Shown here: positions 1 to 6,000 of the stretch, one piece after another
Layout of the letters: each line of letters starts with the position of its first letter
Numbering within the stretch: position 1 is the first letter of the stretch
Assembly (NCBI RefSeq): GCF_054482595.1
Contig: NZ_CM137008.1
Reading direction: 5' to 3' (one strand)
Length of the DNA: 64,000 nucleotides
Made by a program: the position numbers

Positions 1-3000
1 CATCGATCCCGTCGAGTTTCGCATCCTGAATGACACTCAGGTTGACCCCGCCGACCCGACGCGCCGCTTCTCTCGCCGTCAGCTTATCGAGTGCTTGCGC
101 ACCGGAGCGGATAAATTTGGCTGGAAGCAGCGCAACGCCACACCCGGACAGGTGCGCGACGGGGAGTGGCTGGTCGGCCACGGTGTTGCGGCGGGCTTTC
201 GCAATAATCTGCTGGAAAAATCGGGTGCTCGGGTTCACCTCGAACAAAACGGCACCGTTACCGTAGAAACGGACATGACCGACATTGGCACCGGCAGCTA
301 CACCATTCTGGCCCAGACGGCAGCGGAAATGCTTGGCGTACCGCTGGAGCAGGTTGCGGTTCACCTCGGCGATTCCAGTTTCCCGGTTTCTGCGGGTTCT
401 GGTGGACAATGGGGCGCGAATACCTCCACCTCCGGCGTTTACGCCGCCTGTATGAAGCTTCGCGAAATGATTGCCTCGACAGTCGGGTTTGATCCTGAGC
501 AGTCGCAGTTTGCCGACGGCAAGATTACCAACGGTACCCGAAGCGCCACGCTACATGAGGCCACCGCAGGCGGCAGACTGACAGCGGAAGAGAGCATTGA
601 ATTCGGAACACTGAGCAAGGAGTACCAGCAGTCGACCTTTGCCGGGCATTTTGTGGAGGTCGGCGTGCATAGCGCGACGGGAGAAGTTCGGGTCCGGCGT
701 ATGCTCGCTGTGTGTGCTGCAGGACGCATCCTGAATCCGAAAACTGCACGCAGCCAGGTCATTGGCGCAATGACTATGGGCATGGGCGCGGCACTGATGG
801 AGGAGCTGGCGGTGGATGACCGTTTGGGCTACTTCGTTAATCACGATATGGCGGGGTATGAGGTGCCGGTCCATGCGGATATCCCAAAACAGGAGGTGAT
901 TTTCCTGGATGATACCGACCCCATATCCTCCCCGATGAAGGCCAAAGGTGTCGGTGAGCTGGGCCTGTGCGGCGTGAGCGCGGCTATCGCCAACGCGGTG
1001 TATAACGCCACCGGTATTCGGGTACGGGATTATCCCATCACTCTGGATAAGCTGCTCGATAAGCTGCCGGATGTGGTTTAAGGAGGAACAATGTCATACC
1101 CGCTTTTTGACAAAGACGAACACTGGCATAAGCCAGAGCAGGCGTTTCTCACCGATGACCACCGGACCATTCTGCGCTTCGCCGTAGAGGCGCTAATGTC
1201 CGGTAAAGGAGCGGTGCTGGTGACGCTGGTGGAGATACGCGGCGGCGCGGCGCGCCCGCTCGGGGCGCAGATGGTGGTGCGCGAAGATGGTCGTTACTGC
1301 GGTTTTGTCTCTGGCGGCTGCGTGGAGGCCGCTGCCGCTTTTGAAGCGCTGGAGATGATGGGCTCAGGCTGCGAACGCGAAATTCGCTATGGCGAAGGTT
1401 CGCCGTGGTTTGACATCGTTCTGCCCTGCGGCGGTGGGATCACGCTGACGCTCCATAAACTACGCTCGGCACAGCCTCTGCTCGCCGTGCTGAACCGCCT
1501 GGAACAGAGAAAACCGGCGGGGCTGCGCTACGATCCGCAAGCACAATCGTTGGTGTGCCTGCCCACGCAAACCCGAACGGGCTGGAATCTCAATGGCTTT
1601 GAGGTGGGGTTCAGGCCATGCGTCAGGCTGATGATTTACGGACGTTCTCTTGAGGCGCAGGCAACCGCGAGTCTTGCAGCAGCCACAGGCTATGACAGCC
1701 ATATCTTCGATCTTTTTCCGGCCTCAGCCAGCGCTCAGATCGATACCGATACGGCGGTCATTTTGCTGTGCCATGATCTCAACCGAGAGCTGCCAGTGTT
1801 GCAGGCCGCGCGAGAGGCAAAACCCTTTTATCTCGGCGCATTGGGCAGCTATCGAACCCACACGTTACGTCTGCAAAAGCTCCACGAGCTGGGATGGTCC
1901 AGGGAGGAGACAGCGCAAATCCGGGCACCCGTCGGGATATTTCCCAAAGCCCGGGATGCGCATACTCTGGCACTCTCCGTGCTGGCAGAAGTCGCCTCTG
2001 TACGTCTCCATCAGGAGGAGGATTCATACCTGCCCCCGTCGTCCTGATCCTTGCGGCCGGGCGTGGGAAGCGCTTTCTCACCTCCGGGGAAATACCATAA
2101 ATTAAGAGAAAAATCTGCAGTAGCCGTTTTAGAAAATCACCTAAATCGTTTAAAAGAGCGCCCTACCCATAGTGGGTGCTCATCGCCTTGTGTAACTTAT
2201 TCAGCAACGCGCGCCCTCGCCGGACTAAAGCGCACCGGCCTTCTGGCGTGCGGTAACAAAGGTCAGTACGCCCGCGCAAAGGAGCAGCACACTACTCATG
2301 GCAAACGTACTCTGCCAGCCAAGGCGGTCAAACACGATGCCTCCTGCCGTTGATCCAAGGGCGATTGAGAGCTGAATCACCGCGACCATGAGACCGCCTC
2401 CGGCTTCGGCGTTGTCAGGCAACGTACGCGCAATCCATGTCCACCATCCGGTTGGCGCGGCGGTGGCCAGCATGCCCCAGAGTCCTAACAGCAGCGAGAC
2501 CGTCCAGACGTGATGCCCGGTAAGCATCAGACCGATGGCAATGACGGCCATCAGTCCGGGTATGGCCATCAGCGTGGGGTAGAATTTTCTGTTGAGAAAT
2601 GTCGAAACAACCAGCGTGCCAATAAAACCGGCCACGCCGATAATCAGCAAAATCAACGACAAGCCTAAGGAATTAACCCGTGTCACCGACTCCAGAAACG
2701 GGCGCACATAGGTGAATAGCGCAAACTGCCCCATGAAAAACAGGCCACAAGCTATCATGCCGACCACAACCATGCGGCGGCTAAATAAGCGGAATACCGC
2801 GCCACATGACGTGTGGCTTTTATTCGCATCCATGCTGGGCAGACTAATGCACTGCCAGATAAAGGCGACAACCGCCATGGGCACCAGGCACAAGAAAGCG
2901 CCTCGCCATCCGACCGTAGCCCCCAGATAGCTTCCCAGCGGCGCGGCCACGACCGTCGCCAGCGCATTACCGGCGTTGAAAATCGCCAGCGCACGCGTGA

Positions 3001-6000
3001 CCTGATGCTGCGGCACCAGACGAATCGCCGTTGCCGCTGACATAGACCAGAATCCGCCAATGGCCACACCAATCATCGCACGACCGACCATATACATCAG
3101 ATAACTGGTAGCCAGCGCAATAATAAGCCCCGATACGGCCATCAGAACCGTCATCCCCAGCAGCAGGAACTTACGATTCATCTTTCCAGCTAGCGTTGAA
3201 AGCGTCAGGCTGGTCAGAACCGCCAGCGCACCGGAGATAGCAATCCCCTGCCCTGCAAGCCCCTCCGTCACGCCTAAATCGCGGGTAATCGGCGTGAGCA
3301 GGCTGACGGGCATAAATTCAGAAGCAATCAGCACAAACACGCACAGGGTCATGGCAAAAATACCGCCCCAGTATGCGCGCTGATGATGAGGTGATAGTGT
3401 TTGGCTTAGTGTCGACATAGTGAAATTTCACAAAGATCAGGATAAAAGCCACCAGCCTATGGCCGGTGGCTTTGCATCAATTCAGGAGAGGTTTTATTTC
3501 AGTTTGGTCTGGAAAAATTGTTCGAACTTCGCGAAAGGTATTTTTCCGGCCACGTTATCGTACAGGTCCACGTGATTTGCCCCTGGTACCACCACCAACT
3601 CTTTGTCTTTACTGCCAACCGCCTTGTAAGCATCTTCAGCAAAATAGCGTGAATGCGCTTTCTCACCGGTCACAATCAGCGTCGGGATGGTGATTTCACT
3701 GGCGTATCTCAACAGCGGCATATTCATAAATGACAGCGGCATCGTTGCCGTCCACGCCCCGGTAGAGTTAACGGAACGTTCGTGGAAGCCGCGCGGCATG
3801 CGATAGTAGTCAAAGAACTCTTTCAGTACCGGATGAGGATTTGCCGGCAGCGTTTCTGGCAGAATGCGCTCGCCCGCACTGACCTTGCCGTTGCTGTCGA
3901 CATTAATATCATGACCACCGTGAGCAAACGTTCCGCTCTGCGCATCCTTCCAGCGCTGTTCATTCAGATATTGCAGAACAGCACGACGGTCGGCGGTAGA
4001 ATAACGGTCTTTGCCATCCCCCACACCATGACCCATCGCCCGGCTCATGTCATACATCACGCTGGTAGCTACCGCTTTAACGCGGGTATCCATCGCCACG
4101 TCGTTCAGCGCCATGCCGCCCCAGCCACAAATACCGAGCAGCCCGATACGGTTGCGGTCTACCTCTTTTTGCAGCCCTAAGAAATCCACCGCCGCGCTGA
4201 AATCTTCAGTGTTGATATCCGGTGAGGCGACGTTTCGCGGATAGCCGCCGCTTTCCCCGGTGTAAGAAGGATCGAACGCCAGGGTAACAAACCCTCGTTC
4301 CGCCAGCGTCTGCGCATACAGGCCGCTGGATTGCTCTTTCACCGCGCCAAATGGCCCACTGACCGCAATCGCCGCCAGCTTGCGATCGCCACGGTCTTTA
4401 GGCAGGTAAAGATCGCCCACTAAGGTGATGCCATATCGGTTCGGGAACGAGACTTTACGGTGATCGACTTTCTGGCTCTCGGCGAACGTTTTATCCCATT
4501 TATCTGTCATGGACACAGGGGCATTAGGATTGGTTGAATCAGCATAACTCATTGTCGTGACTCCACTTAATGATGCGAAAAGCAGCATGGTCGGCATCGC
4601 GGTTTTTAGCGTTCGGGTGAAGGCTTTCATAAAAATCCCCATAAAAAACAACAGAGAGATACAGGTTTCCGACGGACAACGCTGCGGTGCTTTACTTTGA
4701 TGGGGTCATTATAGTGAGCAGAATTAGTGCTGATTAGGGGGCGATTAATGCTAAGATTAATACCATATTGTTATAAATTAATGCGGAGATTGCCGGCATG
4801 AAGGGGGGATGTTTCAATGGCGAAAAGGGAGAACTACAACGAGCTGTACCTGTTTATGCAGGTGGTGCGGGAAGGCAGCTTTACCGCAGCGGCTCAGCGG
4901 CTGGGTCTTGCTCAGTCAGGAGTCAGCCGTTCTGTTCGCGAGCTTGAAGAAAGGCTGGGTGTCCAGCTGCTAGTGCGCACCACGCGTAAACTGTCGCTGA
5001 CACAAGCAGGCGAGCAGCTCTACCAGAAGACGGCATCTGGATTTGAAATGTTAGATCTTGGGCTTGCCACACTGGCGCACTATCGAGAGACGCCCTCCGG
5101 CACGGTGCGTATCAATGCCAGCCAGCACGCGATTGATAAATGCCTGCTGCCAAAGCTGGCGGTATTTAAACAGCGATATCCTGATATCCGGCTTGAACTG
5201 ATAAATGAGAGCCGGTTCGTCGATATCATCGAGGAAAGATTCGATGCAGGTGTCCGCCTGGGGCCTGAAGTCGGCCAGGGTATGGTCGCGGTACGCATCA
5301 CGCCCGATATGGAGATGGCAATTGTGGGGACTCCGGAACATTTTCGTCGCTATGGTTTTCCGCAAACTCCGGCGGATTTAAAGGCGCATCCCTGTATCGC
5401 CTATCAGTTTGCCGACGGCAGCGTATACCAGTGGGAACTCAATCAGGATGATAAAAAAATCACTCATCGCCCTGAAGGACAATGGGCCCTATCCGACAGC
5501 TATATGGAAGCAGAAGCCGCCCGGCTGGGCCTCGGATTGGCCTATGTTCCTGTTGAACTGGTCGCGGATGATTTAGAACACGGTAAGCTTATCAGGGTGT
5601 TGCAGCGTTACAGCCTGCGAATGGAGGGATTGTTTCTCTATTACCCTCATCGCAACGTCTCCCCCGCCCTGCGGATGGTCATTGATACATTGAAAATCTG
5701 AACGTTAATAACGACCGACTCTTCACTGTGCAAAATTGTGTCAGGTAATCCCTCTGCGTTCAATTCCAGGGTCTGCTTTGAGCGAGAAAGATCAGACTTA
5801 TCTGTACAAGGGGACTATCCAGCAATGGAGATCATCCAAAAGAAAAAACCACCTGGCTCCCCTCGACAACCTTAATCCGGGCATTTAGCCTCAATCAACA
5901 TTTTCATATCTGTCAGGTTACTTCATTATGAAAACCGATCAATATCGTTGTTTTTGTTGCAACAGTAGAATACGCGTATTTATCCCTCCATTTCTATTAA

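Follow-up and report, generated by a model that had tools for sequence, protein, structure and literature searches.

The regulator-hydrolase-transporter half of Escherichia coli O island 9: a recurring gene trio and a proposed OvrB-activated unit

O island 9 (OI-9) of enterohaemorrhagic Escherichia coli (EHEC) O157:H7 EDL933 spans z0342-z0348, in which z0346 encodes the LysR-type regulator OvrB and z0348 a transporter of the major facilitator superfamily (MFS); z0347 is listed as 'a hydrolase' of FrsA/DUF1100 type (Liu et al. 2019, Virulence; PMC6768210). OvrB binds the LEE1 promoter in the enterocyte effacement locus (LEE), activates ler and promotes adherence and mouse colonization in EHEC (PMC6768210). 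A 2024 review called its other roles unclear (PMC10877973). We analysed a 64,000-nt stretch of E. coli DNA (assembly GCF_054482595.1, contig NZ_CM137008.1), hereafter the window, which carries this regulator, hydrolase and transporter as a three-gene cassette. The 2019 study did not treat a Cys nucleophile in the hydrolase, its export, control of the neighbouring genes by OvrB, or the trio beyond Enterobacterales. We found that the trio of LysR, hydrolase and MFS genes occurs repeatedly in alpha-, beta- and gamma-Proteobacteria, together with a TAATC motif common to them, which is new here, and the comparative evidence points to the divergent hydrolase-MFS unit as the cognate target of OvrB.

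The regulator gene (4817-5701, plus strand, 294 aa; orthologue of ovrB, z0346/ECs0309) encodes a protein matching the Pfam models HTH_1 (83 bits) and LysR_substrate (121 bits). Divergent from it on the minus strand is the alpha/beta-hydrolase gene (3494-4630, 378-aa precursor, PA2218/YcjY family; z0347/ECs0310 orthologue), in a reading frame open from 3494 to 4651 whose product exceeded the cut-offs of the PETase and Hydrolase_4 Pfam models. The MFS gene (2225-3418, minus strand, 397 aa, DHA1/NepI-like; z0348/ECs0311 orthologue) starts 75 nt further downstream on the same strand and matched MFS_1 with 128.5 bits. A regulatory region of 186 bp (4631-4816) separates the hydrolase and LysR genes; an HTH_1/LysR_substrate protein encoded at this distance from a divergent gene is the layout of a LysR-type divergent operon. 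Chance is not an issue here, because the open reading frames (ORFs) are long and the family matches strong. The identity of the cassette parts is near certain, and the three-gene accessory cassette of E. coli is real. The original prediction had described a LysR gene divergent from an alpha/beta hydrolase, followed by an MFS transporter and located between paoD and thrW, and all of this was borne out, with paoD ending at 2047 and the tRNA gene at 7653-7728.

The window regulator is identical to Sakai ECs0309 at 289 of 294 residues (98%) and the hydrolase is 99% identical to ECs0310, with 98.3% identity of the locus DNA. In Sakai, ECs0309-0311 are annotated adjoining paoD, and ECs0305-0311 agree with the published order and coordinates of z0342-z0348 (323657-330128). 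The segment is the z0346-z0348 half of OI-9, its LysR protein is OvrB, and both are already catalogued. OI-9 of EDL933 occupies the same site, between paoD and the thrW side where z0342-z0345 lie, and has the same gene order; unlike in O157, the z0342/z0343 half is truncated by a deletion in the window. The 'OvrB' of a Pantoea paper stands for 'onion virulence region B' and is unrelated.

A second described relative is the pgrR(ycjZ)/ycjY pair of E. coli K-12. PgrR is reported to bind the pgrR/ycjY intergenic region and to control ycjY-...-mpaA (PMC5934670). The K-12 pair has the same divergent layout as the cassette pair, with regulators 41% and enzymes 34% identical. The LysR/hydrolase pair of OI-9 is paralogous to pgrR/ycjY, a relationship that is new here.

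The trio in other bacteria and its intergenic region

To place the cassette, we used a genome scan with one genome per species and considered the best 80 of 593 confirmed loci, from many phyla. Within Proteobacteria, the genes flanking the hydrolase encoded orthologues of the MFS protein, with E values down to 1e-229, and of the LysR protein, with E values down to 1e-193. Such loci were found in Kluyvera, Enterobacter, Vogesella, Bosea, Brevundimonas, Paracoccus, Acinetobacter, Luteimonas, Oxalobacteraceae and Microvirga, and Klebsiella michiganensis carries the same three genes in the same arrangement within an unrelated neighbourhood. The MFS gene lay upstream of the hydrolase in some cases and downstream in others, and the smallest gaps were 4-20 bp. 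The recurrence of the trio in many genera, in varied contexts and gene orders, argues that the three genes form a unit. An accessory locus of Pseudomonas aeruginosa (L087, 3959-6649) encodes a LysR protein (43% identical), a hydrolase (44%, with a GICGSG elbow), an MFS protein (65%) and a cyclophilin-like protein. By locus-tag order, PA2218 is followed by PA2219 (opdE, 'membrane protein') and PA2220 (oprR, 'probable transcriptional regulator'). The locus of Pseudomonas sp. M47T1 (L081, 3647-7337) is a decayed copy and was not used as an intact operon: an IS3-family transposase replaces the 5' end of the hydrolase gene and frameshifts split the MFS gene.

The 186-bp region between the divergent genes contains three blocks that are invariant across seven genera including Aeromonas, namely 4749-4778, CTAATCAnCAC (4727-4737) and the -10 element. 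The first is an AT-rich box, ATTTATAACAATATGGTATTAATCTTAGCA (4749-4778, minus strand), which its conservation makes a candidate LysR recognition site. It holds a T-N11-A element (4761-4773) whose dyad symmetry is weak and whose centre would lie at about -66 from the predicted transcription start. Strongly symmetric T-N11-A boxes, searched for in the E. coli intergenic region, were absent from the conserved block. Three TAATC repeats, spaced 11-12 bp apart on the minus strand, were present at 4755-4759, 4743-4747 and 4732-4736, the last of which overlaps the -35 region. The predicted hydrolase promoter has a perfect -10 hexamer, TATAAT (4708-4713, minus strand), with a start near 4701. Within this hexamer TAnAAT was invariant in the seven genera, and the -35 is poor (TAATCA). 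A perfect -10 with a poor -35 is a combination typical of activator-dependent promoters. A generic sigma-70 scan did not report the hydrolase promoter because of the weak -35.

We then compared LysR-operon intergenic regions from alpha-, beta- and gamma-Proteobacteria. All 11 of the 11 regions examined contained TAATC on the sense strand, with a per-region chance of 0.06-0.29. In the alpha-proteobacterial regions, ATTAATCGAT-N5-ATCGATTAG forms a clear dyad, and a second site, (G/C)TAATCG, follows 40 nt downstream. As read from these sequences, the dyad with its second site is the classic two-site LysR layout. The TAATC pattern would be hard to explain without a conserved relationship between regulator and operator.

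Family, active site and predicted export of the hydrolase

In a sequence search of the PDB, the hydrolase matched 2HDW, the P. aeruginosa protein PA2218 ('hypothetical protein', E=4e-125), and 5XB6, which is YcjY of E. coli ('uncharacterized protein', E=1.6e-43). At the position equivalent to C168, numbered from the ATG at 4630, the two proteins likewise have a Cys. Similarity over the full-length sequence and fold, the elbow Cys, and the V-K-E-Q and H-x-D-L-Y-D motifs identify the hydrolase, at the level of sequence, as a member of the PA2218/YcjY family. Unlike the window hydrolase, YcjY has a G-x-C-x-G elbow of canonical form and is without a signal peptide, D194 and E323. Literature searches found no functional study of YcjY, PA2218, 2HDW or 5XB6. 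The two proteins have solved structures and no recorded substrate, and family membership gives no function.

We obtained an AlphaFold model of the hydrolase from an input of 33 diverse sequences, with a predicted local distance difference test score (pLDDT) of 88 and a predicted template modelling score (pTM) of 0.87. The motif G-I-C-G-W-G occupies residues 166-171. In the model, strand 157-167 leads into C168, which is followed by helix 169-180, as in a nucleophile elbow, and C168 aligned with the nucleophile Ser of Ser-hydrolases. Model and alignment together confirmed the predicted placing of a Cys at the nucleophile position of this elbow. Cys168 (codon 4127-4129, minus strand), the predicted nucleophile, is the sole cysteine of the protein. 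In a family set of 150 representatives at 50% identity, the elbow column was covered in 137 and held Cys in 124, Ser in 2 and Gly in 5.

The predicted catalytic histidine, His353 (codon 3572-3574, minus strand), stands in the motif G-A-N-H-V-D-L-Y-D. The model places it in the loop that follows the final core strand (343-348), the canonical His position. H353, D355 and D358 were each conserved in at least 90% of full-length sequences. Among the five members with a Gly elbow, H353 was lost in four (P0152, P0156, P0166 and P0249) and kept in P0163. This joint loss argues that Cys and His act together, and the four members lacking both are probable pseudoenzymes. Three of them, P0152, P0156 and P0249, kept K-E-Q and carry a Cys-rich C-terminal extension of ~150 residues; this subfamily is probably non-catalytic and serves some other role. 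Among family-specific residues, conservation was highest for K98-E99-Q100 after beta3, each kept in 116-117 of 118 sequences, followed by Y276, R280, G281 and H283 of the lid, which is large in the model (residues 195-302). Together, K-E-Q and the lid residues hint at a polar or anionic substrate.

The original prediction had likened the hydrolase to dienelactone hydrolases. Dienelactone hydrolases of the ClcD type share with it the alpha/beta fold, the elbow Cys and a His after the last core strand, and an Arg-containing pocket may suit an anionic substrate. The comparison holds as an analogy through the Cys nucleophile and fails as family membership: we rejected a classical dienelactone hydrolase (PF01738) because the Pfam DLH model stayed below threshold, and on fold ranking. 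The best NCBIfam match was the model of UilS, an acyl-homoserine lactone (AHL) lactonase (NF047920, E=1.3e-17). The hydrolase might then be a quorum-quenching AHL lactonase of the kind known from Serratia as UilS, or else a genuine dienelactone hydrolase from a pathway of aromatic degradation. Its Cys nucleophile recalls ClcD-type enzymes, and UilS itself had been annotated as a dienelactone hydrolase (PMC11633161). We rejected UilS membership on the score (64.4 bits against a cut-off of 400) and on fold ranking, and consider either of these identities very improbable.

The kinship with pgrR/ycjY suggests another function, in which the hydrolase would act as a peptidase or amidase on peptides of the periplasm, derived from the cell wall or otherwise, with the MFS importing the product as AmpG does with muropeptides and the LysR protein sensing it. 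ycjY heads an operon with mpaA, which encodes a murein tripeptide amidase, and mppA and ycjG adjoin. PgrR has been described as a regulator of peptidoglycan recycling (PMC5934670). The Peptidase_S9 and lasso-peptide isopeptidase models also matched the hydrolase weakly. These matches, however, were below cut-offs, and the nearest characterized folds were esterases and thioesterases. YcjY itself is without demonstrated activity, and no peptidoglycan genes stood beside the cassette in the loci examined. We regard a role in peptide turnover as improbable.

The export of the hydrolase depends on its start codon. We preferred the ATG at 4630 because this codon and its purine-rich Shine-Dalgarno ribosome-binding site are invariant across seven genera including Aeromonas, because orthologues in Klebsiella, Serratia, Kluyvera, Citrobacter, Yersinia, Dickeya and others have this N-terminus and an annotated length of 378 aa, and because residues 1-28 are disordered in the AlphaFold model. 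The 26 residues added by this start complete a textbook Sec leader. The predicted signal peptide (residues 1-30; 4541-4630, minus strand) reads MKAFTRTLKTAMPTMLLFASLSGVTTMSYA|DS, with cleavage predicted after S-Y-A. Read heuristically, it has an n-region (K2, R6, K9), a hydrophobic core and an AXA-type site, all kept in orthologues. Sec-, lipoprotein- or Tat-like leaders occurred in about half of the family representatives with an intact N-terminus, and the others begin at the catalytic domain. In leader-bearing members the catalytic domain nearly always had one Cys, that of the elbow, whereas leaderless members had 2-10. A single Cys in exported members is expected of a free catalytic thiol in an oxidizing compartment. 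The E. coli hydrolase is very probably exported via Sec. The call of 352 aa for the hydrolase, which looks too short, recurs in many database entries (for example P0059, P0062, P0074 and P0077).

Transporter and proposed mechanism

Between the hydrolase and MFS genes lies a terminator- or attenuator-like hairpin followed by UUUUAU (3442-3473, minus strand; 13 bp, -23.1 kcal/mol). Its z-score was -4.7, and 0 of 200 shuffles folded as well. Klebsiella and Enterobacter have a hairpin of different sequence at the equivalent place. The gap between the hairpin and the MFS start is too short for a promoter. The hairpin and the lack of room for a promoter therefore suggest partial read-through into the MFS gene, which is probably expressed in this way, below the level of the hydrolase. 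The hairpin is possibly an attenuator that sets the ratio of hydrolase to transporter.

The MFS protein scored 294.8 bits against the NepI model (NF007578), for which the cut-off is 584. This is below an equivalog match, and by sequence the protein is a NepI paralogue of the same MFS subfamily, near the arabinose-efflux and chloramphenicol-efflux families. RefSeq starts the MFS gene at 3352. We preferred the longer alternative at 3418, because its N-terminus (MSTLS...) is shared with the Klebsiella orthologue and the NepI model alignment begins at residue 13 of this version; the RefSeq start is probably too short.

We give about even chances to a mechanism in which OvrB activates a unit made of a periplasmic Cys168-His353 hydrolase, acting on an acyl substrate, and a NepI-like transporter coupled to the sensor. 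OvrB with a small-molecule co-inducer would bind the TAATC operator and activate the hydrolase promoter, as the comparative conservation suggests. The hydrolase would be exported by Sec and cleaved after Ala30. In the periplasm it would cleave an acyl compound through an acyl-thioester on Cys168, activated by His353. The substrate would most likely be an ester, a lactone or a thioester, with an amide as a possibility. The MFS protein would move substrate or product across the inner membrane, linking periplasmic hydrolysis to cytoplasmic OvrB. A similar logic is found in AmpR-AmpC-AmpG, where a LysR regulator is divergent from an exported hydrolase and an MFS protein links periplasm and cytoplasm. 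The proteins of that system are unrelated to those of the cassette: AmpC has the fold of a serine beta-lactamase, and ampG lies away from ampC.

Several points weigh against this mechanism. The TAATC motif was defined after inspection of the data, in lineages that are not independent, so the chance product of 2e-10 is overstated. The original prediction called for structure prediction to confirm a Cys-His-Asp triad, and while C168 and H353 were placed, the canonical acid position after strand beta7 (G322+3) is Ala325. The candidates for the acid are E323 (E or D in 32 of the 47 sequences compared; YcjY has Ser here), D194 after beta6 (Asp in 88 of 112, Asn in YcjY), and D355 and D358 of H-x-D-L-Y-D, which are nearly invariant and whose placement is not canonical. 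None of the four combines a canonical position with universal conservation. The class of substrate is guessed from the nearest folds. DHA1 transporters of the NepI-like kind usually export, and this suits pumping out and destroying a compound better than importing a product. The strong hairpin splits the hydrolase and MFS genes, so that strict co-transcription is not assured. RefSeq/PGAP starts the hydrolase at 4552 (M27), giving 352 aa and excluding the leader; the predicted signal peptide stands with the start at 4630 and is dropped with this one. In EHEC, deletion of z0347 or z0348 left the adherence and LEE phenotypes, the sole traits tested, unaffected (PMC6768210). Neither PMC6768210 nor PMC10877973 contains an experiment on the control of z0347-z0348 by OvrB.

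The hairpin, the RefSeq start, the silent deletions in virulence assays and the binding of LEE1 by OvrB could be taken to mean that the three genes are neighbours in E. coli and no regulatory unit. OvrB would then mainly serve distant genes such as LEE1, the hydrolase would be cytoplasmic and the MFS gene would be expressed on its own. However, conservation of the trio and its operator motif reaches far past the bacteria that carry LEE. The upstream ATG and the leader are also conserved, the single-Cys pattern is typical of exported members, and the MFS gene has no room for a promoter of its own after the hairpin. A mere neighbourhood of genes is, in our judgement, decidedly improbable.

A variant of the proposed mechanism, and not a contradiction of it, is detoxification by 'pump and destroy'. 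Here the LysR protein would sense, in the cytoplasm, a membrane-permeant electrophile or an antibiotic-like ester or lactone, the MFS protein would expel it, and the periplasmic hydrolase would inactivate it and so prevent its return. The DHA1/NepI-like character of the transporter, near efflux families, is in line with this, as is the neighbouring pair in OI-9, another LysR gene with a short-chain dehydrogenase/reductase (SDR) gene. In the best 80 of 593 loci, the neighbours of the hydrolase outside Proteobacteria included cyclophilin-like genes (18 loci), hexapeptide acetyltransferases (16) and cupins (14), as well as AraC- and HxlR-type regulators, flavodoxin, aldo-keto reductase and SDR genes. 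Neighbourhoods of this kind have a flavour typical of xenobiotic response. On the other hand, the direction of transport is not readable from sequence, and no resistance phenotype has been reported. We consider 'pump and destroy' unlikely, though far from negligible. Of the original idea of a lactone or ester catabolic or detoxification module, the recurring three-gene unit stood up, but no test pointed to a lactone or ester substrate; detoxification of such a compound is a reasonable but unproven reading. The cyclophilin-like family PF18050 was the commonest non-regulatory neighbour across phyla in these 80 loci and is absent from the E. coli cassette.

For the proposed OvrB-activated unit, the main value is a lead to the signal sensed by OvrB. 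The substrate or product of the hydrolase is a candidate co-inducer. It is also conceivable, if rather unlikely, that the hydrolase-MFS pair is the native sensory input of OvrB. On this view a rare free-thiol alpha/beta hydrolase would cleave a gut or environmental acyl compound in the periplasm, and the product, or the compound itself brought in by the MFS protein, would be the co-inducer that turns OvrB on. If so, a specific metabolite would be tied to activation of LEE virulence genes in EHEC. The widespread PA2218/YcjY family would then stand as a novel class of cysteine hydrolases that work in the periplasm on a defined physiological substrate. This family of thousands of members, with two orphan crystal structures (2HDW and 5XB6), would also gain its first function. 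Should all of this prove wrong, the cassette would be an ordinary accessory module of regulator, enzyme and transporter.

Flanking genes and history of the site

The window is from a non-O157 strain, and its positions 2000-7800 are 100% identical in DNA to E. coli XH990, which was isolated from human urine. To the left of the cassette lie paoC (plus strand, ending at 1081, with its 5' part beyond the left window edge) and paoD (1091-2047, plus strand). To the right, the LysR gene is followed by a ykgR fragment, which lies between it and thrW, by a small ORF (6404-6676, minus strand, 90 aa; z0344 orthologue), by the truncated SDR gene z0343 (~6847-7104, minus strand) and by the second, truncated LysR gene z0342/yagP (~7107-7526, plus strand). 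Then comes thrW, encoding tRNA-Thr(CGU) (7653-7728, minus strand), with proA beyond. An Rfam scan returned this tRNA as its sole match and no family in 4631-4816. The three cassette genes have a GC content of 0.51-0.55 and are not foreign-looking; the segment is AT-rich only at 5.5-7.0 kb.

Of 5,426 complete E. coli genomes, 912 carried the cassette with at least 80% coverage. Carriers included O157:H7, O145, O55:H7 and strain 042, from human, cattle, pig, dog, chicken and wastewater sources. In cassette-less genomes, position 2100 of the window is joined directly to 7188 with a 5-bp overlap, as seen in L090 (NZ_CP058656.1), and a 339-nt 3' fragment of the z0342/yagP LysR gene is kept beside paoD. 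Because a truncated gene is left at the site, we read the empty site as a deletion. OI-9 appears to be ancestral here and to have been lost by a deletion of ~6.1 kb in most lineages. Contrary to this reading, PMC6768210 suggests two independent acquisitions of OI-9.

The window has a deletion of its own, of 1,041 bp (junction 7105|7106). It removed the 5' halves of z0343 and z0342 together with their shared divergent promoter; both genes are intact in O157-type strains (L002, L089). The AT-rich stretch (5702-6900, GC 0.37-0.41) holds the ykgR fragment and the 90-aa ORF, whose N-terminus is hydrophobic and signal-like.

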